This document shows, in pieces, positions 4,326-62,899 of a stretch of DNA of 64,000 bases. The stretch's first letter is position 1, and every line of letters starts with the position of its first letter. The DNA comes from Mobula birostris (Eukaryota), in assembly GCF_030028105.1 (NCBI RefSeq), contig NC_092382.1, positions 103,995,586 to 104,059,585 on the forward strand, given 5' to 3'. Made by a program: the position numbers and the translations under genes. The notes beneath the pieces were generated by a model that saw only the letters and a program-made list of their open reading frames with translations, was not told where the DNA came from and did not search any database.

Positions 4326-4804
4326 AAGAGATGGAGTAAAGCTCTCCACCTTCTCCCTCCCCTTCTCTCAACCCCCTGTGAAGAGGAACAGAGGAACGGA
4401 AGGCTGTCGTCTCACCTCTTCTCCTACTTAGGTATTGGCAAATCTGATTTTTGGTTTCGGTGATGGCTCTGTACTTCGTTTCTAGCTGATTGCATTCATG
4501 GCGGAGATCGGTGTGTGTTTGATTCAGCTCTGAGAGTTCGGAGTTGAGGATGGTAATGTTATTTTCGAGTTTGGATAGGTTGTTGTTGAGGGCGGAAATA
4601 CTCTTCAGACAGTTTCTCTGGGAGAAATCCAGGTGGGAATTCTCAGATGTCCTGGATTTAAGGGTTGAGTTCAGCTCATGGACTTGCTGTTGATACTGGC
4701 GTTGGGTCCTGTTCATCTCCTGGTGTTGTTCCCAAAGTCTCCGGTAGTTTCGGTCGGAGGTGATCACAGACTGACGAGTCTGTGATACTGAGAGTGATAG
4801 TAAG

Positions 4805-9322: not shown

Positions 9323-9465
9323 CTTTTCCTCGATTGAGTTCATTTCCAGCAGCTTTCAACCGCACTTCGAATATCTTTGCTTCGCTCCAGCGTGAGATTT
9401 TGCCACCGTCGATATGAAATAACAAGCGCCTCTCCTGTTGACCCACCCCTGGAAACACATCTGTT
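9323..9465 (-). pseudogene. Pseudo CTLD-1 exon
   Basis: 143-nt GT-AG exon EQMCFQGWVNRRGACYFISTVAKSHAGAKQRYSKCG*KLLEMNSIEEK, with an in-frame TGA and the conserved Cys replaced by Tyr. Confidence 0.85.
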
Positions 9466-12315: not shown

Positions 12316-12457
12316 CTCTTCCTCGATTGAGCTAATTTCCAGCAGTTTTGAGCCACCCTTCGAACAATTTATCTTCGCTCCAGCGTGAGATTTTGCCACC
12401 GTGATATGAAATAACAAGCGCCTCTCCTGCTGACCCATCCCTGTCAGCACGTCAATT
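12316..12457 (-). pseudogene. Pseudo CTLD-1 exon (duplicate of 9323-9465)
   Basis: ELTC*QGWVSRRGACYFIS(frameshift)VAKSHAGAKINCSKGGSKLLEISSIEEE. Flanks 12260-12700 align with 9270-9720. Confidence 0.85.
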
Positions 12458-26478: not shown

Positions 26479-27052
26479 TTAGGGCACAAGATTGAGTTGA
26501 GAGTAGCTGAAAAGAAAAAAGGTAGAGAGAGAGGGAGTAGCTAAACCAAAGAATGGAATGGGGAGGGAGGGGTAGAGAGGGAGTAGAGAAATACGGGAGA
26601 GAATGTGAAGAGATGGGAGAAGAGTTGTGGGGAAAGGAGCCAGAAAGCGAGGAGAAATAAAATGGAGATGCAATAGGTGAGGTGGGAGGGGAGGAAGATG
26701 AGAGAGAGGGTTTAGAGGGACGACGGTAAAGGGATAGAGGAATGTCGAGTAAGAGTGCGATAGAAGGAAATAAGAGAGTTGGGTTGGGGCGAGGGACAGA
26801 GAGGAAGCAGTACTGAGAGTCGGGAACAGAGATCGGCGAGAAAGAGGATGTTCCCATTTGATTGAAGTCGGCCCCTTGGGCTGTTGACAGAGGTCCGGTA
26901 TCATACCAGGAATATCAGGGTACAAAGGTGCAGGCTTCTCACAGATGAAACGGTGTTGATCATTACTGCAACTCTGAAACCAACCGGGTTTCCATTCACT
27001 GCATTCGAACTTTCCAGCGTTCATTTTGTACACGACACCAGAGGCCACTTTC
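26479..27052 (-). CDS. Orphan terminal CTLD exon (possible alternative last exon of gene B, or remnant of a deleted gene)
   Basis: cag|G AAA GTG.. reads KVASGVVYKMNAGKFECSEWKPGWFQSCSNDQHRFICEKPAPLYPDIPGMIPDLCQQPKGPTSIK. The paralogous stop is TGG here (26854-26856), so the frame runs on to 26479. No CTLD-2 exon of its own is seen upstream. Confidence 0.6.
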
Positions 27053-30532: not shown

Positions 30533-30731
30533 TTACTTGATTTCTGTCGCCTCCATTGGATGTTGACAGAGATCCTGAGTATGTTCAGGAATATGCGGGA
30601 ACAAAACTGCCGACTTCTCGCAGATGAAACGCCGAGCATGATTGCAAGAACTCTTCGCTGGGTACGAGTGGCAGTCTCTGCAGTCTGACGTCCCCGAGGA
30701 CACCTTGTACAGAAGATCCCAGTCTACATTC
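30533..30731 (-). CDS. Gene B exon 9 (CTLD C-terminal half and tail)
   Basis: [65 protein letters not shown]. Confidence 0.9.
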
Positions 30732-33700
30732 CTGTCCAAGACGGTTAACAATTTTAACAGAGACAAAGCAGCTCCAGCAGAGAACCCGAGGCGAGACAGT
30801 CTACAAGCTAAGCCCATGAAATCAATCTCTTCTAACAGCCTGTGCCAGTCCCCAAACTGATCCCACTCATCCACTCTCTCCCCACAGCTCCGTGCCAGTA
30901 CCCAGACAGACACAATGGTCCAAATGTCTCCCCACAATCCCGTGTCAGTTCCCAAACTAATCGTGCAGACCGAATGTCACCCCACAGACCCATGTCTCCC
31001 CAAACTAATCGCACCGTACCGCTTTCTCGCCACAGTCTTCTGTCAGTCCCCATACAAATCGAACAGGACCACGCTCTCCCTTCAGATCTCTTTCATTCCC
31101 CGTACAAACCCCACTGTCCCACCGTCTCCCCACAGACTTATGGCTGTCCTGAGATGAATCCCTCTCGTCCACACTCTTGCATCATCCCTGTGTCGGTCCC
31201 AGAATAATCCTGTTTCCCCTCACTATACCCAGAGCATCGTGTCAGTCTCCGAACATATCGCAGTACACGGCGCACTCACTATAAACTCTGGTCCGCTCCC
31301 AGACTTGTACAACTGGCACCCTCTCTCCCACATCCGTGCGTGAGTTTGCAAACCAGTCCCATTAGCGCCCTGTATCGGCCTCCAAACTAATCCAGTTGTC
31401 CTACTCTCGCCCCTCAGATCTATGTCATTCACCAAACAAATGCCGCTGTTAATCCCTCTCCTCACAGCCCGGCGACTATCTCCAAAATAATCCCACTCCA
31501 CCGCGCTTTCCTCACCGATATGCGTCAGTACAAAAAATGAGATAATTCCTGTGTCCTGAGCTCTCCACAGTGCCCCCAGGCAGTTTCCGAATTATCTCCA
31601 CTGCCCGGACATTCCCCGACAGACACGTGTCGGACTTAAAATGTCCTCATTGTACCACACTCTCCTGAGAACCATGTATAGTTTCATCGTAAACTAATCC
31701 CACTTTCTCCCGTCAGGGTTATGTCAATACCCAACTCTCACACCACAGAGTAATCCAAATCTCACCCGTCTTCGCATTTTCCAATCCAGTATGCACTGTT
31801 TCGGTACACAAGTTTGTCGGATACAAAGCTCTGTGAAATTAAATTTATTTGATTAATGCCAAGAATCGAAAAGTATGTACGGAGTTTCTCTCAGTTGATT
31901 ACAACATGAACCTGTGATTGGACGGTGTGGAGGGAGCTTCACTGTTTGCCATATCCTGTGAATGTATCATGGGACGGTGTGTAGGAAGATTCACTCTGTG
32001 TCTGACCCCGAGAAAGTGTGCTAGGAGTGTACTGTGGGAGTAACTCCGTGGCTGAACCCGGGGGAGTGTTGGGACGATGTGGAGGGAGATTCACTCTGTG
32101 TCTGACCCCGGGAGTGTGTGATGGGACGGTGTGGAGGGAGATTCACTATGTGCCATATCCATGAATGTGTCATGGGGCGCTGTGTAGGAACATTCACTCT
32201 GTGTTCGAATCCGGGAGTGTGTGATGGGACAGTGTGGAGGGAGCTTAACTCTGTGTCTGACCCCGAGAATGTGTACTAAGAGTGTATTCTGGGAGTAACT
32301 CTGTGGTTGAACCCGGGGGAGTGATGGGACGGTGTGGAGGGAGATAACTCTATGTCTGAACCCGAGAATGTGTCCTGGGAGTGTAGTATGGGTGTCACTC
32401 TGTGTGTCACCCCGGAAGTGTCTGATGATTCTTGTGAGATCTTCTTGTGATGTGACACATACCGCTTCATCTCTTGAATTGATTTCAAGCAGCCTTGCAT
32501 CACGGTTTGAACATTCTTGCATCGCTGTTGGGAAAAATGTTTCAGACGTGGATACGAAATAACACCGGTCTTTATTTGTGATCCAGTCCTTGGAACACGT
32601 ATGCTCTGGAAATAGGAATAAGAAGTAGTGAATATCACCCCACACCGTCCAATCACGCACATCGGGGTGAGAGATAGAGTGAATCTCCCTCCATTCCGTC
32701 CCAACCAACACCACACGGGATCAGACCCTTCGACCGTCATCAATGATGCCCTCACCCGCAGCTCCTGCATTCCCGGACTTCAGCCCTCACCCCATCCTCC
32801 CGTCACCACAACAGGGACAGAGACCCCCTTGTCTTCACCGTCCACCCCACCAGACTCCGGATCCAGCACCTTATCCTCCGCAACTTCAGCCAAATTCAAC
32901 AGGACCCACCAGGAAACACATCTTTCACTCTCTACTCCTCTCCGCTTTCCGAAGGGATCGTTCCTTCGGCGACTCCCTAGTCTACACGTCCCTCCCCACG
33001 GAGCAGGTCCTGAAAAGTGAGTATAGAGACCTTGGTCGGAAGTTAAACAGCAGGACCTCCAGGGTGGGTGGTAATCTCAGGATTGCCACCTGTGCCACGT
33101 GCCAGTGACGGTAAGAATAGGATGCTCTGGCGGATAGACACGTGGCTGAGAACTGGTGTAGGGGGCAGAGTTTCAGATTTCAGGATCTTTGGGACCATTT
33201 CTGCGGCAGGTGTGACCTGTACAAGAGTGACGGGTACACCTGAACTACAGGGGAGCCAATATTCTTGCTGGGAAATTTGTCTGTACTATTGTGGAGGGTT
33301 TAAACTAAATCTGCAGGGGGATGGGGTTGGTAACCAGAGTGCCAGAGCAGATAGCGGAGCGGGGGTGAAAATAATTGGTGTTAAAAGTTCATGGAAAGTC
33401 ACAAACAGAAGGGTTATGTGTGGTTGTAATAATCATCTGATGTGTTCTCTATTTCAAAGCGAGAAGTATCCTGGGGAAGGCTGACGAGCTGAGGGCGTGG
33501 ATTGACACATGGAATTACGACATAATATCAATTAGTGAAACTTGGCTACAGCAGGGGCAGGACTGGCAGCTTAATGTTCCAGCGTTCCGATGTTTCAGAC
33601 GTGATAGAGGCAGAGGAATGAAGGGAAGCGGGTGTGGCATTGCTGGTCAGGGAAAATCTCACAGCAGTGCTCAGTCAGGGCAGATCAGAGGGCTTGTCTT

Positions 33701-36700
33701 CCGAGACCTTATGGGTGGAGCTGAAAGACAGGAAAAGTATGACCATTTTAATGGGGTTGTATTATAGACCACCCAATAGTCAGCGAGAATGGGAGGAGCA
33801 AATCTCCAAAGAGATAGCAGACAACTGCAAGAAACATGAAGTTGTGATAGACGGGGATTTTAGTTTTCCACATACTGATTGTGAGTCCCATACTGTTAAA
33901 GGTCTAGACGGGTTAGAGCTTGTAAAATGCGTTCAGAAAGGTTTTCTAAATCAATATTTAGAGCTACCAACCAGAGACGATATAATATTAGATCTCCTAT
34001 TTGGAAACGAGTTAGTACAGGTGACGGAAGTGTGTGTAGGGGAACACTTTGATTCCACTGTTCATAACACTATTAGTTTCAATTTGACCATGGATAAAGA
34101 TACCTCTGGTCCTCGGGTTGAGGTTCTAAACTGGAAAAAGGCCAAATTTGAAGAAATGAGAAAGGATCTAAAAAGCGTGGATGGGACAGGTTGTTCGCTG
34201 GCAAGGATATGATTGATACGTGAGAGGCCTTCAAAGGTGACATTTTGAGAGTGCAGAGTTGAATTTCCCTGTAAGGATTAAAGGAAAAGTGAGTAAGAGT
34301 AAGGAAGCTAGGTTCTCGAGGAATATTGGAACACTGATAAAGAAGGAGAGAAGATGTTTTACATGTATAGGAAACAGGGAGTAAATAAGGTGCTTGAGTA
34401 ATATAAACAAGTGAAAAAGTACTTAACAAAGAAATCGGGAGGGCTAGAGGAAGACGGGGTTGCTTTGACAGTCAAGGTGAAGGATAATCCGAAGAATTTC
34501 CGCAGGTTTATTAAGAGCAAGAGGAGAGTAAGGGATAAAATTGGTCCTAATGAAGATCAGAGTGGTCGGCTATGTATGAAACCAGACGAAATAGGGGAGA
34601 TTTTATTTTATTTTATTTTATTCTTTTTGTGTGTCGTTATGTACTAAGGAAACTGGCATGGAGTCAATAGAAATCGGGCAAACAACAAATGAGGCCACGG
34701 AACCGATACAAATTCAAGAGGAAGAGGTGCTTGCAATCTTGAGGTATATATCCCCAGAGCCTGACAGGGTATTCCCTTGGACCTTAAATGAGACTAGTGT
34801 TGTAATTGCAGGGGCCCTGTCAGATATATTTAAAATGTCGTTACCGACAGGTGAAGTGCCGGAGGATTGGAGGATAGCTCATGCTGTTCCCTAGTTTAAT
34901 CGAGGCTCAGAAAGTAATCCCGGAAATTATAGGCTGTTAGTTTTGACATCATTAGGAGATAAATTATTGGAAAGAGGTCTAAGAGACAGGATCTACAAGT
35001 ATTTGGATAGACAGGGACTTATTAGGGAGAGTCAACATGGGGTTGTGCGTGGAACGTCATGTTTAACAAATCTATTAGAGTTTTTCGAGGAGGTTACCAG
35101 GAGGGTGGGTGTAGGAAACGCAGTGGATGTTGTCTATAGGGATTTCAGTAAGGCCTTTGACAAGGTCCCGCATGGGACGTTAGTCAGGAAGAGTCAGTCG
35201 CTAGCTATACATGCAGAGGCAGTAAAATGGATTAGACGTTGCTTCAATGAGAGAAACCAGAGGGTGGTAGTGGAGGATTGCTTCTCTGAGTGGAGGCCTG
35301 TGACTGGTGGTGTGCCACAGGGATCAGTGCTGGGTCCATTTATATTTGTCATCTGTATCAATGGCTGGATGATAATGTGATATGTTGGATCAGCAAATTT
35401 GCTGATCATACCAAGTGTGGAGGAGTAGTGGACAGTGACGAAGCTTTTCCAAGCTTGCAGAGGGATTTTGACCAGCTGGAAAATGGGCTGAAAAATGGCA
35501 AATGGAGGTTAACACAGATAAGTGTGAGGTATTACACTCTGGAAGGACACACCAAGGTAGAAGATAGAAGGTAAATGGTTGGGCACTGAGGAGTGCGGTG
35601 GAACAGAGGGGTCTGAGAACGCAGATGCAAAATTCTCTAAAAGGGGCGTCACAGGCAGATCGTGTCGTAAAGACAGCTTCTGGAACATCGTGTTATAAAT
35701 CAAAGTATTGACAGAGGATTGGAATGCTATGGAGCGGTTGTACAAGACATTGGTGAGGCCGAATTTGGAGTATTGTTTGCTGTTTTGCTCACCTAATTAC
35801 AGAAAGGATATTAACATGGTTCCAATATGCAGAGAAGGTTTACAAGGATGTTGCGGGGACTTGAGAAACTCAGTCACAGAGAGAGGTTGTAAAGGGCAGA
35901 ACTTGATTTCCTGGAGCGTAGAAGAATGAGGGGGGATTTGAAAGAGGTGCATACAATTGTGGTGTATATATATCCATGTATCTTAATTATGACGGGTTAT
36001 GATGGGTATTGGTTGGGTGAATGCAAACATGCTCTTTTTTTCTACAGAGGCAAGGGGAGATAAAAAAAATAAAATAGAGAAGACATGAGTTAAGGGTGAA
36101 GGGGGGAAATTTCAAAGAGAATATTAGGGGTCGGTGGCTTCTTCACTCATAGAGAGGTAGGAGTGCGGAATGAGCAGCCAGATAAAGTGGTAAATGCGGG
36201 CTCATATTTAACATTGAAGCAAATCTTGCACAGGTACAATGATGAGAGGTGAGGTGTATTGAGGGATATGGTCCAGGCGCAGGTTAGTGGGACCACACCA
36301 AAAATGATTTGGCACAGCCAAGAAGAGCCAGAAGGCCTGTTTCTGTGCTGTAATGTTTTTATGGTTTCCACAAGCTGTGATTCTTCCCAAAGGTTGTGTT
36401 ACTAAGTACTGACATGCAGGGTGTCCATATTTTTTCTTCATGCCTTTTCATTGTTTGCTATTTTGGAACGTAAAAGATGGAAATAAAAAAGTTCTCTTGC
36501 CTAAAATATTAAAGAAAACTGTCATCTTTAACTTTATGTTTTTTGGAAATCAGTTCATCTTTTACTCGTTTAGCTATTCACAGTAAAAGAAATTTTGATC
36601 AGGGAATCCCAAATGGTTGCATGCCACTGCAGTGTGAAACTCCCTCCGCACCATGCCGTCACACGCTCCCGGGGTCAGACACTGTATGAAGCTCCCTCCA

Positions 36701-39700
36701 CACGTCCCATCCCACACTCCCGGGGTCGGGCACAGAGTGAAATTCCCTCCACACCATTCCATCAAACCCTCCCGTGGTCAGCCAGAAAATGAAGCTTCCT
36801 CTGAATAGTCCACTGTCGCATCACACGCTCTTGCGGACAAACACAGAGTGAAGCTCCATCAGCACCGTCCCATCACACACCCGGGAACAGGCACAGAATG
36901 AAAATACCTCAGCAAAGCTCATCACACACACGGGAACAGACAGGGAATGAAACTCCCCTCAGCACCGTTCCATCACGGTCTCACAGAGTCAGGCATCGCG
37001 TGATGCTTCTTTCACACCGTCCCGTCACCGAATACAGATTTCAAAAACCCAGCAAAGATCCCTGTACAAAATCCTGGGGTCAGACATAGAATGAAGCTCC
37101 CTCCACGCCGTCCCATCACACATTCCCGGGGTCAAACACAGAGTGACGTTTTCTCCACACCCTTCTACCATGAAACAGAAGGATGAGGCACAGAGTTAAG
37201 CTAGCCTCACAGTGTCCATTCGCACACCGCAGGGAAGTGGTACGGTGTAGCTCCTTCAGCACCATCCGACTACCGACAGCCGAAGAAAGACATGAAGAAA
37301 GCTCTTGCCCACTCTCTTGCCCAGAAATGGTGTAAGGCTCCTTCACCAGCGTCTCATCACACTTTCCCCGAATCAGACACAGAGTGAAGCTCCCTCGACA
37401 CCGTGCTGAAGGCGAGCTACACTCCAAGTGAGGTAAGGCAGGGTAAGTTCCTTTAAAAGTAGAACGGTATGCAGCGGTATTTTATTTGGAGCAAGGAAGG
37501 CGGCGAGGCTGTAGCGTATTGGGTAGGTCATGACAGCTCAGATCGGCCCCATGGTTTGTTCACCTGCATGTGCGAAATCAGGCACTTCCACTATCCCTGA
37601 CGACTATGTGTGCAGGAAATGTGTCCAGCTGCGGATTCTGGCAGACCGCATTGAACGGCTGGAGCTGCGATTAGATTTATACTGGAGCATCCGCGTTGCT
37701 GAGGAAGTCGTGAATAGCACGTTCAGTGAGTTGGTCACACCGCAAGTAAAGGCTACACAGGCAGAAAGGGAATGGGTGGCCGCTAGACAGCGTAGCAGTA
37801 GGCAGCTAGTGCAGGAGTTCCCTGAGGTCATCTCTCTCCTAAACAAATATACTGTTTTGGATACTGTTGGGAGAGATGTCTCATCAGGGGGAGTTAGCAG
37901 CAGCCGAGTTCATGGCACCATGGGTGGCTCTGCTGCACAGGAGGTGAAGGAAAATGAGTGGGAGAGCTATAGTTATAGGGGACTCGATTGTAAGGGGAAT
38001 AGATAGGCGTTTCTGCGGGAGCAAACGAGACTCCAGGAGGGTATGTTGCCTCCCTGGTGCAGGGGTCAAGGATGTCTCTCAGTGGCTGCAGGACATTTTG
38101 GAGTGGGAGGGTGAACAGCCAGTGGTGGTGGTGCACATAAGTACCAAGGAAAGAGGTAAAATAACGGGATGAAGTCCTAGAAGGTGAATTTAGGGAGTTA
38201 GGAGATAAACTAAAAAGCAGGACCACGAGGGTAATAATCTCTGGATTAGCAGCAGTGCCACGTGACACTCAGAGTAGAAATAGCAGGATATATCAGATAA
38301 ATACGTGGGTTGAAAATCGTGCAACGGGGAGGGATTCAATTTTCTGGGGCATTTGAACCTGTTCTAGAGGAGTTGACACCGGTACAAACAGGACGGTCTG
38401 CACCTGGGCTAGACTGGAACCAATGTCCTAAGGAGAGCGTTCGCTACTATTGTTAAGAAGGATTTAAACTAATGTGGCAGGGGAATGGGAACAAGTGCAG
38501 AGAGACAGAGGGGTGTAAAATGAGGGTAGAGCAAAAAGTAGTAAGGTGAAACGCAAAAGTGGCAGGCCGGCAAATTCAGGGTAAAAATCAAAAAGGACCA
38601 CTTTTCAACATAATTGTATAGGGGCTAAGAGTGTTGTAAAAGCAAGCCTGAAGGCTTTGTGTGTCAATGCAAGGAACATTCGTAACAAGGTGGGTGAATT
38701 GAATGTGCACATAGTTATTAATGAATATGCTGTAGTTGGGATCACAGAGACATGGCTCCTGTGTGACCAAGGATGGGAGCTCAACATTCAGGGATATTCA
38801 ATATTCAAGAGGGATAGACATGACAATTAATGAGGTCGGGTAGCATTGCTGGTTAGAGAGGAGATTAACGCATTAGAAAGGAAGGACATAAGCCGGGAGG
38901 ATGTGGAATCGATACGGGTAAAGCTGCATAACACTAAGGGACAGAGAACGCTGGTGGGAGTTGTGTACAGGCCACCTAACTGTAGTAATGAGGTTAGAGA
39001 TGGCATTAAACAGAAAATTAGAAATGCGTGCAATAAAGGAACAGCAGTTATAATGTGTGACTTGAATCTACATATAGATTGGGTGAACCAAATTGGTTAG
39101 TGTGCTGACGAAGAGGATTTCTTGGAATGTATGCCCGATGGTTTTCTGAATCAACATGTCCAGGAACCAACTAGAGAGCAGATAATTCTAGACCGGGTAC
39201 TGAGTAATGAGGAAGGGTTAGGTAGCAATCTTGTACTGCTAGGCCCATGCGTAAGGGTGATCATAATATAGTGGATTTCTTCATGAAGATGGAGAGTGAC
39301 ATATTTAATTCAGAAACAAAGGTTCTGAAATTAAGGGTAACTTTGAAGGTATGAAAAGTGAATTAGCGAAGATAGACTGGCAAATGATAATTAAAGGGTT
39401 GACGGAGGATATCCAACGGCAAGCATTCAAAGATCGCATGGAGGAACTACAACATTTGTTCATCCCAGTTTGGCACAAGAATAAACCAGGGAAGGTAGTG
39501 CACCTCTGGCTGACAGGGAAAATTAGGGATGGTATCAATTCCAAAGAAGAAACATACAAATTAGCCAGAAAAAAGCGGCACACCTGAGGACTGGGAGAAA
39601 TTCGGAGTCCGGCAGAGGTGGACAAATGACTTAATTAGGAAAGGCAAAAAAAGCTGATGAGAGAAAGATTGCAGGGAACCTAATAACTGACCTCAAAAGC

Positions 39701-42700
39701 TTTTATAGATATGTAAAAAGAAAAAAAAATAATTGGATAAGACAAATGCAGTTCTTAGAGTCAGAAACTGGTGAATTGTTCATGCGGAACCAGGACACGG
39801 CAGACCAATTGAATAACTACCTTGGTTCTGTCTTCACTAAGGAGGACATAAATAATCTTCCGGAAATATTAGTGGACCGAGGGTTCAGTGAGATGGAGGA
39901 ACTGAGGGAAAATACATGTTAGTAGGGAAGTGGTGTTGGATAAATTGAAGGGATTATAGGCAGATAAATCCCCAGGGCGAGATGGTCTGCATTCCAGAGT
40001 GCACCAAGAAGTAGCCCAAGAAATAGTGGATGCATTCGTGATAATTCTTCAAAACTCTTTAGATTCTGGATCAGTTCCTGAGGATTGGAGGGTGGCTAAC
40101 TTAACCCCGCTTAAAAAAAAAAAAAAGTGAGAGAGAAACCGGGGTATAATAGACCGGTTAGCCTGACATCGGTGGTGGGGAAAATGCTAGAGTCAGTTAT
40201 CAAAGATGTGATAACAGCAGATTTGGAAAGCGGTGAAATCATCGGAAAAAGTCAGCATGGATTTGTGAAAGGAAAATCATGTCTGACGAATCGCATAGAA
40301 TTTTTTGAGGATATAACTAGTAGAGTGGATAGGGGAGAAACAGTGGATGTGGTATATTTGGATTTTCAAAAGGCTTTTGACAAGGTCCCACACAGGAGAT
40401 TAGTGTGCAAACTTAAAGAACACGGTATTGGGGGTATGGTATTGATGTGGATAGAGAATTGGTTGGCAGACAGGAAGCAAAGAGTGGGAATAAACGAGAC
40501 GTTTTTCAGAATGGCAGGCAGTGACTAATGGGGTACCGCAAGGCTCAGTGCTGGGACCCCAGTTGTTTACAATATATATTAATGACTTAGTCGAGGGAAT
40601 TAAATGCAACATCTCCAAGTTTGCGGATGACACGAAGCTGGGTGGCAGTGTTAGCTGTGAGGAGGATGCTAAGAGGATGCACGGTGACTTGGATTGTTTG
40701 GGTGAGTGGGCAAATTCATGGCAGATGCAATTTGATGTGGATAAATGTGAGTTTATCCAGTTTGGTGGCAAGAACAGGAAAACCAATTATTTTCTGAATG
40801 GTGGCAGATTAGGATAACGGGAGGTGCAACGAGACCCCAGTGTTATTGTGCACCAGTCATTGAAAGTGGGCATGCAGGTACAGCAGGCAGTGAAAAGGCA
40901 AACGATTTGCTGGTATTCACATCAAGAGGATTCGAGTACAGGAGCAGGGTGTTTCTACTGCAGTTGCATAATTCCTTGGTGAGACCACCCCTGGAGTATT
41001 GTGTGCAGTTTTGGTCTCCTAATCTGAGGAAACACATCCTTGCCATGGAGGGAGTACAAAGAAGGTTCACCAGATTGATTCGTGGGATGGCAGGACTTTC
41101 ATATGATGAAAGACTGGATCGACTAGGCTTATAGTGGCTGGAATTTGGAAGATTGAAGGGGTCCTTATTGAAACATGCAAAATTCAGAAGAGATTGGACA
41201 GGCTAGATGCAGGAAGATTGTTCCAGATGTCGGGGAAGTCCAAAATGAGGGGTCACAGTTTAAGGATAAAGGTGAAACCTTTTAGGACCGAGATCAGGAA
41301 AAACTTCTTCACACAGACAGTGGTGAATCTGTGGAATTCTCTCTCACAGGAAACAGTTGAGGCCAGTTCATTGGCTATGTTTAAGAGGGAGTTAGATGTG
41401 GCCCTTGTGGCTAAGGGATTAGGGGGTATGGAGGGAAGGCTGCTACAGGGTTCTGAATTGGATGATCAGCCATGATCATACTGAATGGCGGTGCAGGCTC
41501 GAAGGGCCGAATGGCCTAATCCTGCACCTATTTTCTATGTTTCTATGTTTCTGTCTCCACGGACACATCACACACTCCAGGTGCCCGATGTGGAATGAAG
41601 CTCCCGTCCACACTGTCTCATGAGACACTCTTGGGGACAGACACATAGTGACGCTCCCTCCATACCGCCCCTCACACACACACCTTAGTTCGGAGAACAC
41701 AATTTATTTCCCTCCACAAAGTCCAGTCAGACACAGTGTGAATCTCTCTCTTCGTGGCACCGTCACACACTCTAGCGGTCAGACAGGGAAAGAAACTCCC
41801 TGAGCACACATAAAATTTCAGATTGAGAATGATTCTCCCCTCTACAGCTTCTCAACACACCACAGAGCAAAGTGTCAGACACAGAGTGAATCTCCCCCTT
41901 ATACGGTCCCGTCACACACTCCCGGATTCAGACACAGAATGAAGCTCCCTCCACACCGTCCCATCACACACTCTCGGGGTCAGAGATAGAGTGACTCTCC
42001 CTCCATAGTGTTCCGTCACACACTCCCGGGAGTCAGACACAGAGTGAAGCTCCCTGCACATGGTCCCATCACAGACTCCTGTGGTCAGTCACAGAGTAAA
42101 GTTCCCTTCACACCGTCCCATTACACCGTCTCGGGGTCACAGACAGAATGAATCTCCCACCACATGGTCCAATCCCACATCCCGAGTCTTACACAGTGTG
42201 ACTCTCCCTCCTTACGTCGCATCACATACTCCCTGGCGAGTCACAGAACGAAGCTCTTCCTGAACTGACCCACCACACCCCACTGTGTTCACACAAAGCG
42301 ACGTTCCACCCACACACTCCCATGGCACACTCACGGGGTCAGAATCTCTCCACAGCATCCAATCACACAATCTGGTGTCACATATAATAAACGTCCATCT
42401 GCACTGTCCCATCAAACACTCCCGGAGTCAGACACAGACGCTCTTTCTCTACGATCCCATTGAGACTGACACAGAGTGAAGCAACATCCGCTCCGTCCCA
42501 GCACACACTCCTGAATTCAGCACAGAGTGAAGCTTCCTCTGCACCGTCCCATCACTCACTTCCGGAATCACGCACAGAGTGAAGCCCCCTCTGCAACGTC
42601 CCATCACGCTGTCCCGGATTCAGATGAATCTTTCTCCACGGTGCCATAACGCCATGGATTCAGACATTGGGTGACGCTCTGTGGGCACTGTCCCATCACA

Positions 42701-49990: not shown

Positions 49991-50859
49991 GCTGTCTCGG
50001 ATTCCGTGCGTCTCTGAACTCAGCGAGGGGATGTATCCGATATCAGAGGCAGCCCCTGTTGACAGCGGAGTCAGACCGACAGGAACGAACACCAGATGAG
50101 CAGCTGATAAAGAGAGGAGCCGAGAGCAGGGGAGGAAGTGCTGGGGAAGAGGGAGATTGAGGGTGTGAGAGGCGGTGGTCTGGAGCGATGAGAGTGGCAG
50201 GGGGAAGAGTAGTGAGAATGGGGAGGTACACAGGGAGGGCAGAGTAAGGGGAGGTTAGGGCTTTGCGGAAAGAGAGACGTGGGATACAGGGGTCAGAAAG
50301 GGATGGCGGAATGAAAGAAGGGGAGGGCGAGAAGTGGGAGAGAATGGGGAGAGAATTTAAAGTAGCGAGTGAGTAAACAGAGGGCGAGCTAAAGGGGGAA
50401 AGCAGGAGAAAGAGAAACGAACAGGGAGGGGCGGAGGAAGAGGGTGGAGAGATGCAGGGAAGGGGCGATTGTAGGGGAAGGAATATGGAAGTTGGAAGGA
50501 TATAGGAAGAGAAGAAAGGAGACAGAAAACAATGGAAGAAGGGGAAGAGTGGGGGATGACGAGTGAAGAGGGAGGGAGAGACAGAGCGATATGTTGTCTC
50601 TCACGCAGAACCTTTATTGTCGGAGAGATTTACAACGAACACCAGCCCCCTCTCCCGCTAACCCCAACCTCCAGGTGATTCCTGGTTTGAGTGTCAGCGC
50701 TCCCATTGCTCTTCTTATCGCCGGGGCTTCAGATCGTCTGTGCTCTGGAAACCACGGCCCCGGGGCAAACCAGCAACACCCACCGAAGTTAGCAAGCGCC
50801 ACACCTCCCCCCCCCCCCCCGGAGGATACGTCAGAGCAATAGATTGCCATTTTAGATTG

Positions 50860-50985
50860 TGTAACACTTATGAAAGAAAGCGGACATTTTGATCTTGAAG
50901 GTCACAGGAAACCAGCGCAGGCTGATCGGTATCTGCGGTTTGAATCTCTTCACCCATTGGAAGATAAGCCGGGGGTTGTCAGTGT
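50860..50985 (+). mobile_element. Short Penelope RT fragment (mirror copy at ~52900-52990)
   Basis: HRKPAQADRYLRFESLHPLEDKPGVV. Confidence 0.5.
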
Positions 50986-51362
50986 CAGTGTTTCAGAGAA
51001 GTATTGAAAGATTGCTGCTGCACTGACTGAGCTATATACGCAGCAAGAAATAAAAATAGCAGGGACCTCAGCCCAACAGACGCAGTTCAGGAGCTCTCTC
51101 AAAAACCCTCCATCACCTCCTGTCAATCATGTTCTCCCTCTGCGTCCCTCACTCTTCCTTCACTATCTTACTATTTCTCTCCCTTGACTGCCTCCAACCT
51201 GCTTCAATTTCGCTCCTTTCTTCAGCTCTCCCATTTTCCTCTTACCCCTCTCCCTCCTGTGCCTTTCTATCTCAGTGCCCTCCTCATGAAGCCTTCTCTT
51301 TTTTCTCCCCACGCTTTCTACCCGACAAGAGAGATTCTACGTACCTTGTTCCTATTTTCCAG

Positions 51363-51438
51363 AGCAGGCGGTGTGGCGAAGCAGCATTTTTCACACCCAG
51401 ATTCAAAGCGTCTGGAAATAAATTCAAAAGTGGAAGAG
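51363..51438 (+). pseudogene. Internally deleted CTLD-1 exon remnant in the palindrome spacer
   Basis: ttccag|AGCAG..AKQHFSHPDSKRLEINSKVEE with the donor lost. Downstream GATATATCCACACC matches the gene C intron at ~61712. Confidence 0.7.
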
Positions 51439-51629
51439 TCCTTTGTCAGATACACAGAAGATATATCCACACCGGACTGAATATCCATCCACACTGTTCC
51501 ATCCCACACTCCCGTGATCAAACGCAGAGTGAAACTCCCTCCACACCGTCCCAGCACACACGCCCGGGGTCAGACACATGGTGAAGCCCCCTCCACACCT
51601 TTGGTGTCAGATCTGCTGTCTTTCACGCG

Positions 51630-51843
51630 ATATCGATCTCTCAGTTCTGAGCTTGCCTGTGTCTCTGTGTGCACAGGATTATCGTGTGGTTTCACATCAC
51701 TTCCTGCCAGTGCTGCAAACTCACCACCTATTCACAGCCCTACGTCTCCTCCCGCTCCCTCCTCAGTTCTACATTTGATCACAAACACAGATTATCTCTG
51801 AGACAGGCTCACAATTAGAGACTACAGGAACGCTGAAGTGATG
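51630..51843 (+). promoter_or_regulatory. Putative promoter and non-coding leader exon for gene C (copy 3)
   Basis: RUNX-type TGTGGTT (51685-51691) lies next to ETS-type ACTTCCTG (51699-51706). Strong donor G|gtgagt at 51844, candidate acceptor TTTTATCAG at 53766. Confidence 0.55.
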
Positions 51844-51945
51844 GTGAGTGCTGAGGTGGGAGAGAGGGAGTAAAGAGGGAGATACGTTCTGTTTCCGAAT
51901 CTGTTGGTGTATAATGGGACTGTGAGGAGGGAGCTTCACTCTGTA

Positions 51946-52077
51946 ACACTCACAACACGCTGGAGGAGCTCAGCAATTCGGGCAGCATCCGTGGAACGAT
52001 CAATCAACGTTTCGGGCCGGAACTCTTCCACGGGTGCTGCCCGACATGTCCAGTTCCTCCAGCGTGTTGTGAATGTT
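51946..52077. mobile_element. Short hairpin (MITE-like or Penelope-terminus-derived) element
   Basis: AACACTCACAACACGCTGGAGGA..GGGCAGCA pairs with TGCTGCCC..TCCTCCAGCGTGTTGTGAATGTT. Confidence 0.65.
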
Positions 52078-52114
52078 GTTTTCACCGCAGCATTGGCAGA
52101 TTATTTTGTGTTTA

Positions 52115-52577
52115 AACTTCACGCTGTGTTTGACCCCAGGTGTTTGTGATAAGACGGTGCGCGGGAGTTTCTCTCTGTTTCGGACCCTGTGGAGTCTGTG
52201 ACCGGACGGTGTAGAGAGAGTTTCACTCTGTGTCTGACCCCGGGAGTGTGTGATGGAACGGTGTGAGGGAGATTCACTCTGTGTCTGACCCCGGGAGTGT
52301 GTGATGGGACCGTGCGGAGGGAGATTCACTCTGAGTCTGACCCCGGGAGTGTGTGATGGGACGGTGTGGAGGGAGATTCACTCTGTGTCTGACCCCGGGA
52401 GTGTGTGATCGGACGGTGTGGAGGGAGATTCACTCTGTGTCTGACTCCGTGTGTGCGATGCGACGGTGTGGAGGGAACTTCACTCCCTGTCTGATCCTGA
52501 CGACTGTGAGATGCGATGGTCTGGAGGAAGTTGTACTTGTGTCTGACTCCGGGAGTGGTTGTTCGGACAGTGCCGAG

Positions 52578-52580
<3 letters not shown>
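52115..52580 (+). repeat. 52-bp satellite array, followed by (CT)n(CA)n at ~52578-52632
   Basis: Tandem units visible. Confidence 0.9.
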
Positions 52581-52632
<52 letters not shown>

Positions 52633-55600
52633 TTTCAGTGTGTCACTGTTCTGGAGAGCTGGAGAGAGGAGCGAAATTGAAGCAGGTTAGAGGCATTGAT
52701 GGGAAAGAAATAGGGAGATAGTGAGGGGAGAGTCAGGGACGCAGAGAGAGAAAATAATTGACAGAAGCTGATGGAGGATTTTGAGAGAGCTCCTGAACTC
52801 TGTCTGTTGGGCTGACGTCCCTGCTATTTTTATTTCTTGCTGTGTATATAGCTCAGTCAGTGCAGCAGCAAGCTTTCAATACTTCTCTGAAACACAGACA
52901 CTGACAACCCCCGGCTTATCTTCCAATGGGTGAAGAGATTCAAACCACAGATACCGATCAGCCTGCGCTCTTTTCCTGTGACCTTCAATATCTCAATCTA
53001 TGATTTCTTTCATAAGTGTTACACAATCTAAAATGGCAATCTATTGCTCTGACGTCTTCTCGGAGGGAGGGGCTCGCTTACTTCGGTGGGTGTTGCGTGT
53101 TTGTCCCGGGGCCGTGGTTTCTAGATCAGAGAGGGTCTGAAGCCCCGGCGATAAGCAAAGCAATGGGAGCGCTGACGCTCAAACCAGGAATCACCTGGAG
53201 GTTGGGGTTAGCGGGAGAGGGGGCTGGTGTTCGTTGTAAATCTCTCCGACAATAAAAGCTCTGCGTGAGAGACAACATACCCGTCCGTCTCTCCCTCCCT
53301 CTTCACTCGTCATCCTCCACTCTTCCCCTTCTTCCATTCTTTTCTCTCTTCTTTCTTCTCTTCCTATATCCTTCCACATTCCATATTCCTTCCCCCACAA
53401 TCGCCCCTTCCCTGCATCGCTCTTCCCTCTCTTCCTCCGCCCCTCCCTGTTCGTTTCTCTTTCTCCTGCTTTCCCCCTTTAGCTCGCCCTCTGTTTACTC
53501 ACTCGCTACAGTAAATTCTCTCCCCACATCTCCCACTTCTCGCCCTCCCCTTCTTTCATTCCGCCATCCCTTTCTGACCCCTGTATCCCACGTCTCTCTT
53601 TCCGCCAAGCCCTAACCTCCCCTCACTCTCCCCTCCCTGAGCATCTCCCCACTCTCACTACTCTTCCCCCTGCCACTCTCATCGCTCCAGACCACCGCCT
53701 CTCACACCCTCAATCTCCCTCTTCCCAGGCACTTCCTCCCCTGCTCTCGGCTGCTCTTTTTATCAGCTGCTCATCCGTTGTTTGTTTCTGTCGGCCTGAC
53801 TCCGCTGGGAACAGGGGCTTCCTCTGACAACGATCACATCCCCTCGCTGAGTTGAGAGACGCAAAGAATCCGAGACAGCATGGAAGACAGGCAAACTTAT
53901 GCGAATGTTCAGCTCGTCAAACCGGACTTACGGTTTCCATCGAGAAGTGAGTGAGGCCGTGACGGAAGGAGGGAGTTTCAATCTATTCTGTCCCCTGGAG
54001 TGTGTAATGGGACGGGGTGGAGGGAGCAACACTCTTTGTCTGACAGTCGGAGCGTGTGATTGGACGGGTGGAGGGAGCGACTCTCTGTTTCTGGCTCTGG
54101 GAATGTGTAATGGGACAGTGGGGAGGGAGCTTCACTCTGTGTCTCATCCCGTGTCTGTGTGTTGGCATGGTGTGGAGGGAGATTCACTCTGTTGCTGACT
54201 GCGGGAGTGGGGAATGGAACGGGGTGGAGGAAGCTTGACTCTGTGTCTAACCCCGGGAGTTTGTGATAGGAGCCTGGGTCGCGGCGTCACCCTGTTTCTG
54301 ACTCTCACTGTTCTTTTCCCAGCTGAACCTGATGTATCGTACGCGAAACCGAATATCAAAGGCCTCTCCGTTCCCCGGACAGATGCATGTCAGTTTCACT
54401 TTGTTGTTTTGACTCTGTTCAGCCAATGTGTCCATTCCTGTCGAGAAATCTCGTGGCACGGGCGCAGTTGACACTAATGATTCCCTGTTTGAGAATAATT
54501 CATAGGCAATGCGTGCGAGACGCGATGAGATACGAGCTCTGTGGGATGGTCGATGAGGGGGGAGCGCTCTAGGAAGGGGCGGGGTAAGGCAGAGCAGGAG
54601 GCGGGACGGTAGAGACGGAGGGCTGTGGAAAGTGATGAGAAGATTGCTCTGGGTGGGATCGGTGCAGAGAACGTCACGGGATTTGTGGTGTGGTGGGAGA
54701 ACCGTGTGAGGGGGTTAAATTGGGGTGCACTGAGGAGGGGGGTCTGTGTGGTGGGGGGGCGTGGTGCGACAGCAGGGAGTGCTGCGGCATGGCCAATAAG
54801 GAGGAAACCCCTTGGGAGGAGTGGCGAGGAGGGAGGAGAGTAGAAAGAGGCAGTGAGGAAGGGGAACTCTATAAAATGTGAACAATACTCTCCGCGTTCT
54901 AACCCTGCTCTCTCATCCTTTCTACTCTCTCTCCCCTGCCTCCCTCTTTCTCCCCCCTATCTCTCACACGCTAATCCGCTCTCACCTTCTTTTCTTCTTC
55001 TCTGGCCCACTAATTCTTTCTCTTACCCTCATTCTCTCCACTTTCCCTACCCTTATCACTGTTTCTACCCTTCTACGCCTCCCGCTCTCTCCGTTGCCAT
55101 TTCCCCTCTATCTAACTCTCTTTCCCCATTCTCCCCTTTCCCACACTCTCTTTCATATTGTCCTTCTCCACCGTCCTCGTTCTTCTCGCGCACTCTTTCC
55201 CTCACTCCGCTCACTTCGCCCCGCCACTTTTTCTCCCTCCTGTCTCAGTCTATCTCCCCGTTCACACCCTCTCGCTGTGACCCAATCTTCCGAGCAACTG
55301 CCCCCTCCACACCTTCTCACTCTCTGTATTCACCTCGTCCCTCTCTCCCCCACGCTGTCCCCTCTCTCTTTACCCTCTCTATTTAACCTGTCTCCCCTTC
55401 TGTCTCTCTCCCTTTATTTTGCACCCTTGAGCCTCCCAAGTTTCCCCTCCCTCAGTCCCCCTCTCTCACCTTCTCCTTCGCTGATGTTCTCACCCCTGCC
55501 TCTCCCCTACGCATAATCTCTCTCCCTTTTCTCCCTCCCTCTCTCTGTCTTCCCCTTTCCGTCACCGTTCTCTCTCCCCCATTCACTCCCATCTTCTCAC

Positions 55601-57264
55601 CCATCGCTCAAATCGCTCACTCCTCTCTGCCCAGTCCATTCATCCTTTTCATCCTCACTCTCCTGCTCTTTCTCCTCGGCTCTTTCCCCTCACTTGCACC
55701 TCTCTCTCATCTTCAATATCTACCACTCAGCCCTCTCTTTCCGCACTCTATCTTCCCGCATCGCTGCTCCGTTTCTAGGACCTCACCCCTCCACCATGCT
55801 TTACTGGTCTGTCCTCCTTCTAAATTTCCCTCTCTCATTCTCTCCTCTTTCTTCCCCAGACCGTCTGACCTCCACCCACTCCGAGCTGAACATTGGGAAA
55901 GACGAACACCTCATCGATGAGGATGAGGTTCCTCCCATTGCCTCGAGTTCCGGCGAGCTGCGAGTCACTGCACGAACAGGTCAGAGTTCACAGTACCGAC
56001 ACTGAAGAGGTCACGTGTCATACTCACAAGTGTCCAAGTTTCTAATGCATCTGCCTCGGCCACTACCTCTGGCAGCTTGTACCACTGACTGACCGCCATC
56101 GGGGTAACAAAAGTTTGTTACTCGGCTCCTGACATTTAACACGTTTTAATTGGCTCTGCTCCATTGATTGTCCTCTTCCCAGGAAGTGACAATCTGTCAT
56201 TTCAGGCACTTTGTTCTCAGTCAGCTTGAATCGCGCAGATCAGGCTGCCTCACCTCCAAGGCCTTCATCCACACATCCCGCTGCATCGCTGAAGCAGCCT
56301 CCGTAATAAAGACTCCGACCCACCCAGGATAATGTTCTTACGAGACCCCCTCCCAACCCATACTCTCCCACATCGGGGAAGATACGTAAACAAGCCTCGC
56401 CAGGCACAAAGGCAGTTTGTGCCCGCTTTTATCAGACTATACAGTGGTCCCCGATGACGGTAATGCACTCTAGACATCGCCGTCTGCTACGTCGTATCCC
56501 CTTGAATATTAATATCTGCCTGCACTGTACTTTCTCTGTAACTGTGACACTTTACTCTGCGCTCAGTTATTCTTTTACCTCTTTTACTCCTATGATGTGA
56601 TCTGTATCTATGACATTCCACTGGGACATCTCCTCTTTGAGATATATACAATGATCTGAATGCAAATGTAGATGGGTGGGATAATACACAATAGACAATA
56701 GGTACAGGATTAGGCCATTCATCCCTTCGAGTCAGCACCGCTATTCACTGTGATCATGGCTAAACGTCCAGAATCAGTACCCTTTTCCTGCCTTCTCCCC
56801 ATATCCCTTGACTCTGCTACCTTTAAGAGCTCGATCTAAATCTTTCTTGAAATAATCTAGAGAACTCGCCTCCACTGCCTTCCTAGGCAGAGCGAGGACC
56901 TTTATGTCCTCGTGTCCACGTGAATGGTACCTGAGGATTGGAGGGAGGCGAATGTTTACCCGTTGTTCAAAAATGTTAGTAGGGACAGTCCGGGTAATTA
57001 TAGTCCAGTGAGCTTTCCGTCTGTCTTGGAAAAGATTCTTAGAGATTGGATCTCTGGGCGTTTAGAAAATCATGGTCTAATCAGGGACAGTCAGCATGGT
57101 TTTGTGAACGGCAAGTCATGTCCATCAAGCCTTTAGAGTTCTTTGAGGAACTCTAAAAGAAATCATTTTAAGCACACCTACTGAACTCTCTCCCATCTGA
57201 ACCATTCAATCTTAGAGCGTGCCGTCTATAAAAAAAAAAAAAAAAAAAAACTCCCTGTAGAGTT

Positions 57265-58008
57265 ATTGAAGCAACACTTTCAGTACGCTGGATGAACTCA
57301 GCAGGTCGGGCAGCATCAGTCAGAAACGATGAGTCGACGTTTCGGACCGGAACCCTTCGTCAGGACTGAAGAATGAAAGATGGGGAAGGATTTGAAGAAT
57401 GCTTGTAGCTTCAGTTGAAAGACCAGTAACTTGAAAGATAAAGGGGTGGGGGAGGGGAAGCAGTGACTTCATAGCCCTGAATAAATGGGTGGTAGAAGAA
57501 GGAGGCGGAACCATGAGGGAGCTGGGGGACGGGGTAGAGTGAAATAAGGATAGAGGAAGGGAGGGGGAGGGAATTACTGAAAGTCGGAGAATTCTATGTT
57601 CATACCAAGGGGCTGGAGACTACCTGGACGGTATATGAGGTGTTGCTCCTCCAACCTGAGTTTAGCCTCATCATAGAGGTAGAGGAGGCCATATATGGAC
57701 ATATCTGAATGGAAGTGGGAAGCAGAGTTGAAGTGGGTGGCTACCGGGAGATCATAGCTGTTGTGGCGGACGGAGTGGAGGTGCTCGACGAAGTGGTCCC
57801 CCAATCTGCGTCGGGTTTCATCGATGTAGATGAGGTCGCACCGGGAGTACCGGATCCAATAGTCGACCCCAACAGACTCACAAGTGAAGTGTTGTCTCAC
57901 CTGGAAGGACTGTTTGGGGCCCTGAATGTTTGCAGGAGATGAGGTGTAGGGACAAGTTTGGAGGAGCAACACCTCATATACCGTCTCGGTAGTCTCCAGC
58001 CCCTTGGT
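57265..58008 (-). mobile_element. Penelope-like element (mirror copy of 45878-46620)
   Basis: ORF 57574-58014 GIY-YIG-like. Confidence 0.9.
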
Positions 58009-59359
58009 ATACACAATTCCTGCTTGTCTTCCTGCTCTTCTGCAGCTGTGACACTATCTCTGATCAACAGTCCCACCTCTTTTGCCTCTCTCCCTGTCCT
58101 TTCTGAAACATCTAAATCCTGGCACTCGAAGTAACCATTCCTCCTCCTTCTATTTCTCTGTCTCTCACATTCTCTTTCTTTCTTCCCAGACGGTGTCACA
58201 TCCATCTACTCAATGCTGAACCTTCGGAAAGACGACATTCTCATCGATGATTATGAGGATCCTCCCATTACCTCGGCACCCGCCGAAATGCCAGTGACTG
58301 CACAAGGAGGTCAGAGTTCACAGTTATGACGTCACTCTGAAGTGGTCACGTGCCATACGCCCAACAATTCAAGTCCTAATACATCGGCATCCATCACTTC
58401 CTCTGGCAGCTCGTTCCATAGACAGACCGCCGTCTGGGTAAAAACAAAATCGTCACTCGGGTCCCAGTTTAAATCTCTTTCTGCTATCATCTCAGACATG
58501 TGCGCTCCGGTCCACGGTTCCCCAAGATTAAAGAAAATTACAGTGCGCATTCACCTTCTCTGTGTACCCACGTGTTTGTATACACCCCTGTAAGGTCATC
58601 CCGCGCTCCAAGGAATAAAGTCCCCACCTGCTCGACTTATCTCCGTAACTGAATCCCTCGAGCCCCGGCAATATCTTCGTAAATCTCCCTCTGCAATCTG
58701 TCCAGCTCATTGATATATTTCCTATAGCAGGGCGACCAAAACTAAACACCGTACTCCAAGGGCGGCCTCACCGACGTCTTGTACAACTGCAACGTGACCC
58801 CCTTAATCCTGTACTCCGTGCCCTGATTGATGAAGGCCGGGACGTCAGACACCTTCACCGACCCCTCTACCGGTAACTTCACTCTCCAGGAACGTTGGAC
58901 GTGGGGCCCTTTGTCCCGCTGTTCTCCAACACACGCCAGGGTTTCTCCCGAACACTGTGAACGTTGTACCCTTGTTTTCCTTTCTGAAATACGATAGCTC
59001 GCACTTATGAGAAATAAATCGCATTTGCTACTGCTGTGCTCTCTTCCCCAGCTAATCGAGATCCCACTGTAAGCGGTAAGTGCCTTCACTGTTTACCTCG
59101 GCAACGACGTTCGTGTTGTCAGCAGGTTTACCAGCCGCGACTTATATAATCTTTCTGCGCTCAACTCTGATCTGTCCATTCTCAAACGAATTCACACTGA
59201 TCTCCGTCACCAGTTCACTGAGACGGAAACGATGTTCAGATCTGTCAACGAAACCAAGGCTCAAATCTGTGAATTGCTGACCAGCAGAAAAGGTGAGGCA
59301 GCATCCCCCTCTTTAACCCGCTCCTTATCACAGGACAGGAATAGAGAGAGGAAGCGTCA

Positions 59360-61525: not shown

Positions 61526-61719
61526 TTCGGTTTTCCGAATTTCCAGAGCAAGCATTTTCCCAGGACTGGATTAGAAATGAAGACCGGTGTTATTTCATAT
61601 CCACGATTGAAAGATCCTACGATGAGGCGAAGCAGCATTGTTGGAACTCTGATTCAAATCTTCTTGAAATAAATTCAACAGAGGAAGAGGTATGTATCTT
61701 ATCGACCGGAAGATATATC

Positions 61720-62770
61720 CACACCAGACTGACGCTCCCTCCTCACCGTCCCATCACACACACCCGGGATCAGGCACAGAGTGAATCTCCCTCCACACCG
61801 TCCCATCACACACTCCCGGGGTCAGACACAGAGTGAAACTCCCTCCGCACCGTCCCATCACACACTCCCGCGGTCAGACACAGGGTGAATCTCCCTCCAC
61901 ACCGTCCCATCACACACTCCCGGGGTCAGACACAGAGTGAAGCTCCCTCCACACCGTCCCATCACACACTCTCGGGGTCAGACACAGAGTGAATCTCCCT
62001 CCACACCGTCCCATCACACACTCCCGGGGTCAGGCACAGAGTGAATCTCCCTCCACACCGTCCATCACACACACCCGGGATCAGACACAGAGTGAAACTC
62101 CCTCCGCACCGTCCCATCACACACACCCGGGGTCAGAGACAGAGTGAATCTCCCTCCACATCGTCCATTCACACATTCCCGGGGTCAGAAACAGAGTGAA
62201 ACTCCATCCACACCGTCCCATCACACACTCCCGGAGTCAGATACAGAGTGAAGCTCCCTCCAGACCGTCCATTCACTCATTCCCGGGGTCAGACACAGTG
62301 TGAAGCTCCCTCCACACCGTCCATTCACTCATTCCCGGGGTCAAACGCAAAGTGAATCTCCCTCCATACCGATCCATCACACACTGCCTGGGTCAGGCAC
62401 AGAGTGATGATTCTTCCAGTAGTCCATTCACACACTCCCGGGGTCTGACACAAGGTGAATCTCCGTCCACACAGTCCCATCTGTCACTCCCGGGGTCAGA
62501 TACAGAGTGAAGTTCCCTCCACACTGTCCCATCACACATTCCGAGGTCAGATACAGAGTGAAGCTCCCTGCACACCGTCCCATCACACACTCCCGGGGTC
62601 AGACACAGAGTGAATCTCCCTCCACACCGTACCATCACACACTCCCGGGTCAGGTACAGAGCGAAGCTCCCTGCACACCGTCCCATCACACACTGCCGTG
62701 GTCAGACACAGAGCGAATCTCCTTCCACACCGTCCAGTCACACTCTCACGCGGTCAGACGTAATGTGACG
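61720..62770 (-). repeat. 52-bp satellite array downstream of gene C CTLD-1 exon, opposite orientation, highly homogeneous
   Basis: About 20 near-consensus units. Confidence 0.95.
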
Positions 62771-62899
62771 CTCTCTAAATTTTGCTCGAATTCAATCATT
62801 AATGATAGCAATTTAATTTCAAAGAATTTTGTTATCAAAGCTGTGCACGACCAACGCAGTTCATTCTGGATTGGAAAATGCAAAGCCGTGTGAGATTAG

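Follow-up and report, generated by a model that had tools for sequence, protein, structure and literature searches.

How do two neighbouring receptor genes come to share a nearly identical signalling tail yet carry ligand-binding domains from different lineages? The question is raised by a 64,000-nt stretch of the 4.0-Gb genome of the ray Mobula birostris (contig C17, positions 103995586-104059585; hereafter the window), in which two genes related to C-type-lectin-like receptors, B and C, lie head to head in a palindrome. Positions below are those of the window unless given in Mb, and exons are numbered from the first coding exon, as in the original prediction, which was made from this stretch alone. 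The window pair is one of four head-to-head cassettes with a shared tail on C17. In these cassettes, old and unrelated lineages of C-type-lectin-like domain (CTLD) stand behind near-identical tails containing immunoreceptor tyrosine-based inhibitory motifs (ITIMs), a combination that likely arose by recurrent conversion or crossover between the arms and between duplicated cassettes. Gene C of the window is a likely pseudogene.

Gene B consists of nine exons encoding 377 amino acids, identical to record P0002, listed at NCBI as an uncharacterised protein of M. birostris. The protein has an N-terminal tail, a single hydrophobic segment (19-residue mean, 2.71) whose core lacks charged residues, and a neck. 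ITIMs follow the consensus (S/I/V/L)xYxx(I/V/L), which the tail of gene B matches twice, at STYSEL and SIYSML. The whole protein scored 28.1 bits against Pfam Lectin_C (cut-off, 22.6), placing a CTLD at the C terminus. None of five single-exon pieces matched a lectin family, because each of three exons encodes a part of the CTLD, which scores only when the protein is complete. The best matches of the CTLD among sequences of solved structures were CLEC9A and LOX-1 at the top, with CLEC12A and NKR-P1 (E values of 2e-9 to 1e-7). These features suggest that gene B encodes a type II C-type-lectin-like receptor whose signalling would be inhibitory.

After masking of a 52-bp satellite, genes B and C aligned as the inverted duplication that had been predicted, with arms on either side of a 1.4-kb spacer: 44732-49562 pairs with 59152-54306 at 96.5% identity, and an inner block, 49910-51231, pairs with 53960-52653 at 90.9%. 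A separate block at 94% (42998-43188 with 59339-59148) follows a gap that corresponds to a deletion in gene C. Tail exons and introns are 93-99% identical overall, and the introns and repeat inserts within the tail reach 97-99%, so the predicted inclusion of introns and embedded repeats in the near-identity was correct. Both CTLD peptides quoted in the prediction are present. The CTLD exons differ as described there (74%, 74%, and 66% identity), and the intron pieces beside them are 56-69% identical. Near-identity had been said to run from exon 1 through the neck exon, which was not confirmed: exons 1 and 2 with the promoter are just 93% identical between the arms, and arm C jumps from intron 4 to the middle of the neck exon.

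Where does the similarity between the two types end? Across eight cassette genes, no fixed B/C difference was found from 51260 to 45000, and 15 lie within 44863-44741; arm identity falls to 91.6% over 44999-44735, already before the deletion. Divergence between the two types is about 12% over the transmembrane (TM) exon with intron 5 and 10% around the neck; it is 20% within the initial 440 nt of intron 6 and exceeds 30% in the satellite that follows. Synonymous divergence (dS) between B and C falls into three strata: 0.033 in the tail, 0.21 in the TM segment and neck, and 0.52 in the CTLD, where nonsynonymous divergence (dN) is 0.37 and dN/dS is below 1. The immediate drop predicted at the neck donor was not seen; instead, identity steps down to 81% over 43043-42600 and then to 68%. 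When gene B of the window was typed at 250 diagnostic sites, the C allele was present at 3 of 118 sites in the TM region and 7 of 16 immediately ahead of the neck, then at all 22 within the neck exon and none of the 91 beyond. What looks like a sharp drop at the neck donor is thus where a short C-type patch in gene B ends. This mosaic tract reaches 5' of the deletion in gene C, so it would either predate that deletion or have come from another C copy. The predicted switch point in intron 6 thus needs to be divided: the recent one lies in intron 4, with the first fixed difference at 44863, and the older B/C boundary falls within intron 6, at about 42600. That intron measures 10.4 kb in B and 2.3 kb in C, and comparison with 12 relatives revealed no remnant of an older neck within that of gene B.

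If the tails have been exchanged and the CTLDs have not, trees of the separate exons should disagree. Every single-exon search of the genome returned 135-247 candidates, and 40 of these were scored; on C17, all scored matches fell between about 101.4 and 111.2 Mb, in a large cluster of type II lectin-like receptors. The loci placed in trees were top search matches, not a random sample, and make up a small share of the family. In the CTLD tree (29 loci), B and C belong to different starred clades, and their union was rejected (approximately unbiased test, p-AU 7e-73); both have closer exon 7 relatives elsewhere (85-87%). The tail-exon tree (36 rows) instead mixes B and C within clades at 100/100 and 99/97, and the TM tree (21 rows) places them as sister clades. 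This discordance bears out the claim that one ITIM tail is found on two CTLD lineages. The TM and neck of B mostly group with relatives from other CTLD clades, and the closest CTLD relatives of B mostly carry a different TM and neck; these are hints that B may be an old chimera joined in intron 6, given a poorly resolved neck tree (2 of 21 branches starred, some neck exons mis-extracted).

A second species separates the two halves of the gene further. In Mobula hypostoma, the tails of two models, P0008 (B type) and P0005 (C type), are 99% identical to each other and 85-88% identical to those of four M. birostris cassette genes, which are 94-99% identical among themselves. The CTLDs sort by type across the two species (B-B, 85%; C-C, 86-90%; B-C, 40-49%), as do the necks, window gene B excepted. 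Tails that group by species and CTLDs that group by type are the signature expected of concerted evolution after the species split, as far as two automatic protein models can tell.

The second gene of the window does not match the predicted receptor pair, since it has no TM exon. Missing from arm C are the TM exon, intron 5, and roughly 92 nt at the start of the neck exon, acceptor included. Relative to two undeleted C-type genes, 1583 and 1574 nt have been lost, and AATCT flanks the junction on both sides. Two unplaced contigs, C4310 (identity of 99.95% over 34.9 kb) and C848 (identity of 100% over 13.8 kb), show the same deletion state. No in-frame CAG or TAG acceptor was found for the neck remnant. 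A predicted skip from exon 4 to exon 7 stays in frame and yields 257 amino acids without a hydrophobic segment (hydrophobicity maximum, 0.96). Gene C is thus likely a pseudogene; it could conceivably yield a cytosolic product, but nothing supports this. Absence of the first CTLD cysteine was considered as a further sign of decay and rejected, as intact C-type genes and their clade also lack it. Exon 9, the last CTLD exon, lies about 110 nt past the end of the window. Just beyond it is a run of N; C848 is identical up to that point and then runs into the flank that other C-type genes have, and may therefore represent the true continuation beyond gene C. Features of the two genes and the other cassettes are listed in Table 1.

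Table 1. Exons, palindrome elements, and sequence switch points of genes B and C, with the other shared-tail cassettes on C17.
Feature	Position	Strand	Remark
Gene B exon 1	49924..49990	-	ATG; imperfect ITIM-like QTYANV
Gene B exon 2	49480..49545	-	Tail
Gene B exon 3	47885..48004	-	ITIM STYSEL
Gene B exon 4	45576..45695	-	ITIM SIYSML; internal duplicate of exon 3, 75% identical
Recent B/C switch point, intron 4	44863..44972		First fixed B/C difference at 44863
Gene B exon 5	44431..44547	-	Uncharged TM segment; no counterpart in gene C
Gene B exon 6	43044..43280	-	Neck; C-type patch 43237-43078, 22/22 diagnostic sites
Gene B intron 6	32606..43043	-	10.4 kb; repeats, among them the 52-bp satellite; older B/C boundary at about 42600
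Gene B exon 7	32463..32605	-	CTLD 1
Gene B exon 8	31766..31830	-	CTLD 2
Gene B exon 9	30533..30731	-	CTLD 3 and stop
Left inverted-repeat arm	44732..51231
L-type promoter-to-exon 2 module	49509..51247	-	71 fixed differences from R type, 8 genes
Spacer	51232..52652		1.4 kb; CTLD-exon remnant 51369-51438, satellite; orientation relative to flanks differs between cassettes
Right inverted-repeat arm	52653..59152		R-type promoter, tail exons
Gene C exon 1	53880..53946	+
Gene C exon 2	54323..54388	+	Last base before donor G>T
Gene C exon 3	55860..55979	+	ITIM tyrosine gone: STHSEL
Gene C exon 4	58190..58309	+
Gene C deletion junction	59148..59152	+	5-nt AATCT microhomology; about 1.58 kb lost
Gene C neck-exon remnant	59148..59292	+	No acceptor
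Gene C exon 7	61547..61689	+	CTLD 1, C lineage
Gene C exon 8	62825..62889	+	CTLD 2
Cassette, B/B	102.07 Mb		Both genes intact
Cassette, B/B	108.07 Mb		Both arms with the same 8-nt exon 4 deletion (frameshift) and the same neck-donor loss
Cassette, B/C	107.93 Mb		Intact C; B interrupted by a stop in exon 9

Intact B-type and C-type genes occur together in none of the cassettes examined. The two B/B loci, at 102.03-102.13 and 108.03-108.12 Mb, are giant palindromes with arms of about 45-52 kb at 93-99.5% identity. The frameshift and neck-donor loss common to both arms of one of them (108.05-108.10 Mb) form a further mosaic tract; this shared damage was either spread by homogenisation or copied by duplication. 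A further C-type gene, at 110.58 Mb, is intact, and its tail is more distant (exons 3 and 4 at 91% and 87%).

Which copies have exchanged sequence can be read from tail variants shared privately by two genes. Gene B shares 43 with the right arm of the 108.07-Mb cassette, 4 Mb away, and 2 with gene C; two other genes that are not partners share 16, and the pairs within two B/B cassettes share 10 and 5. Most of the tail identity is explained by recent cassette duplication together with exchange between cassettes, and arm-to-arm exchange is evident mainly in the B/B cassettes. The prediction of arm-to-arm conversion was sound as to sequence exchange but not in naming the local arms as its main source.

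The 1.75 kb nearest the spacer behaves differently from the rest of the tail. It exists in two types, L and R, separated by 71 fixed differences across eight genes, and none lies further out. The L promoter belongs to B in the window and to C in the 107.93-Mb cassette, and these two cassettes hold the spacer in opposite orientations with respect to the B-to-C axis. The spacer is also reversed between the 102.07- and 108.07-Mb cassettes relative to the left flank that they share outside the palindrome. At the window locus, its orientation is the same in two overlapping unplaced contigs. The reversal fits one crossover between arms and, equally, separate transfers of a C ectodomain to either arm; the two are indistinguishable. 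In both B/C cassettes, the gene with the L promoter is intact and the one with the R promoter is broken (n = 2).

Could a simpler history account for these genes? The original prediction allowed for one recent inverted duplication or graft that set a single tail onto two CTLDs, with its breakpoint in intron 6. Homology does drop to satellite background near 42600, within that intron, and the grouping of the B TM and neck with other CTLD clades fits an old graft there. However, three dS strata (0.03, 0.21, and 0.52) cannot come from one event, intron 4 rather than intron 6 contains the recent boundary, and both CTLD types occur in the second species with that species' own tail. A single recent event is thereby contradicted as the sole cause and is improbable. 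A still poorer explanation is that the arms or the deletion were produced by the assembly, through a haplotype mis-join or a collapsed repeat. The region is a nest of segmental duplicates at 95-99% identity with arms over 50 kb, the run of N follows the last exon of gene C where C848 continues differently, and C4310 and C848 stem from the same assembly. Yet the arm differences amount to 1-7% and are patterned, the deletion has microhomology and occurs in three contigs, and the second B/C cassette and the second species show the same pattern, all of which makes an artefact very improbable. Least credible of all is a history without exchange, in which purifying selection kept the tails alike and diversifying selection drove the CTLDs apart. 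The high CTLD dN (0.37) would suit it, but the 97-99% identity of tail introns and repeat inserts refutes it, CTLD dS is itself 0.52 with dN/dS below 1, and the tails cluster by species.

A different kind of alternative grants the exchange and assigns it a function. Flips of the spacer would act as a selected switch that sets which ectodomain receives the L promoter and tail, either as a standing polymorphism or in immune cells. The reciprocal arrangements (L with B and R with C, against L with C and R with B), the persistence of 71 fixed L/R differences, and the intactness of the L-promoter gene in both B/C cassettes are in keeping with such a switch. On the other side, that last association comes from two cassettes; of the B/B cassettes, one has an intact R gene and the other has no unbroken gene; and two unplaced contigs over the window cassette have the same orientation. 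Moreover, flips are an expected by-product of long inverted repeats (PMC9731477), and we regard a selected switch as an improbable explanation. In its fuller form, alleles or immune cells would differ in specificity under the stronger promoter, and selection would keep the tails interchangeable and the promoters distinct; this too we consider improbable.

Several observations weigh against recurrent exchange as we have described it. Direct exchange between arms B and C in the tail of the window cassette is thin (2 private shared variants), and the tail of the 110.58-Mb C-type gene is just 80-82% identical to all others. The spacer-proximal 1.75 kb has stayed distinct (93-94% between L and R in all four cassettes), which simple proximity does not explain, and the donor of the neck patch in gene B cannot be named. 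The sample comprises 29 CTLD-bearing loci from a family with 135-247 search candidates. For the second species, it comprises two automatic models at the protein level, and no branch of the protein tail tree is starred (85/85 and 94/94). Finally, the neck-to-CTLD joint of gene B is absent from the contigs of three presumed-RNA runs from one study. Some of these contigs end at exon edges (49924, 47885, 43281, and 31830) with 1-6 differences, and one joins TM to neck; they are not assignable to gene B and were not used as evidence.

Other loci in the cluster depart from this pattern. The reverse, mammal-like pattern is found between C17 loci at about 109.90 and 106.10 Mb and those at 102.77, 106.99, 107.89, and 110.63 Mb: CTLD exons are 94-100% identical, TM and tail exons are 78-81% identical, and the necks differ in length. 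At 110.47 and 110.57 Mb are two mirror-image head-to-head units whose partner genes show exons 1 and 2 only, and one unit drives the intact C-type gene, with a 14.6-kb intron. At 103.92-103.96 Mb, a B-type ectodomain is preceded by a tandem TM and neck duplicate and an unrelated tail exon. The window also contains a third CTLD lineage (gene A) and scattered family exon remnants, at 2100-4800, 9323-9424, 12316-12416, 26840-27047, and 51369-51438. Protein P0010, a family member, combines a B-like CTLD with a short tail in which no ITIM match occurs, and by these features might be a non-inhibitory counterpart.

The closest known parallel is the head-to-head pair SIGLEC11/SIGLEC16, whose upstream region and first exons have been repeatedly converted within each species (PMC5701461). 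As in the ray, the 5' parts are near-identical, introns included, the region further out is less similar, and one partner is often non-functional. The converted part of the ray pair likewise groups by species and the rest by gene, in two species at the protein level. SIGLEC11/16 products are type I proteins, in which the 5' part encodes the ligand-binding domain, whereas in the type II ray genes it encodes the tail. Furthermore, Siglec-11 and Siglec-16 signal in opposite directions, whereas ray B and C both have ITIM-type tails. Activating KIR and Ly49 receptors share a signalling domain that clusters by species and has recombined onto ligand-binding domains of different lineages, giving discordant domain trees (PMC2213150). 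There, the shared domain is activating and the genes form tandem arrays; in the ray, it is an ITIM tail in inverted cassettes, with CTLDs about 45% identical. Merohomogenisation, described for KLRC, KLRI, KLRB, Ly49, and PIR, also confines concerted evolution to part of a type II CTLD receptor gene, and exons 2 and 3 of inhibitory Ly49 genes cluster apart from the lectin exons (PMC3210942). In opposing pairs, however, it is the ligand-binding domain that is homogenised, which is not the case for ray B and C.

The original prediction had presented this locus as the reverse of the mammalian pattern. That contrast does not stand, as KIR and Ly49 share signalling domains and SIGLEC11/16 convert the same 5' end (PMC2213150, PMC3210942, and PMC5701461). 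Nor do B and C resemble paired opposing receptors: intact genes of both types have an ITIM tail and an uncharged TM segment, and their CTLDs are 40-49% identical rather than homogenised. In Saccharomyces, homogenised gene-containing inverted repeats let the enclosed segment re-invert (flip/flop; PMC9731477). Both yeast orientations occur among strains, whereas those of the ray occur among paralogous cassettes of one assembly, and the ray flip re-pairs promoter and tail with ectodomain. Gene B, likened by sequence match to type II CTLD receptors of the mammalian natural killer (NK) complex, has their ITIM tail, single TM segment, neck, and three-exon CTLD but differs in a shortened second half of the CTLD. 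A whale-shark genome paper reports no NK-cluster orthologues in cartilaginous fishes (PMC8455134). A literature search, with most subscription journals outside its reach, returned no paper on this cluster or on homogenised tails among the lectin receptors of sharks or rays.

We infer that conversion and crossover produced this pattern in the following way. Long, near-identical inverted 5' halves would sustain both processes, and the resulting exchange would homogenise the 5' halves and re-pair them with different ectodomains, fading where old divergence and large insertions break homology. Because the 5' half of a gene for a type II protein encodes the cytoplasmic tail, homogenising the 5' halves of head-to-head genes homogenises the signalling part. 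Selection is unneeded for the pattern but may explain why the ectodomains and the two promoters resist it. As an outcome, promoter and tail would form one module and the ectodomain another, and the two would assort separately in the germ line.

The predicted pattern is real and has firmer support than the stretch alone could give. In the window itself, the result is one receptor and one likely pseudogene, and no working receptor pair. The logic, homogenisation of the 5' or signalling part, is a known one seen here through type II topology. The cassettes offer a clean example, from two species, of partial concerted evolution that homogenises the signalling half, and they indicate that promoter-tail and ectodomain modules re-pair within a cartilaginous-fish lectin-receptor cluster. 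Which domain of a receptor becomes homogenised can thus be set by gene geometry and membrane topology together, with no need for a particular selective account.

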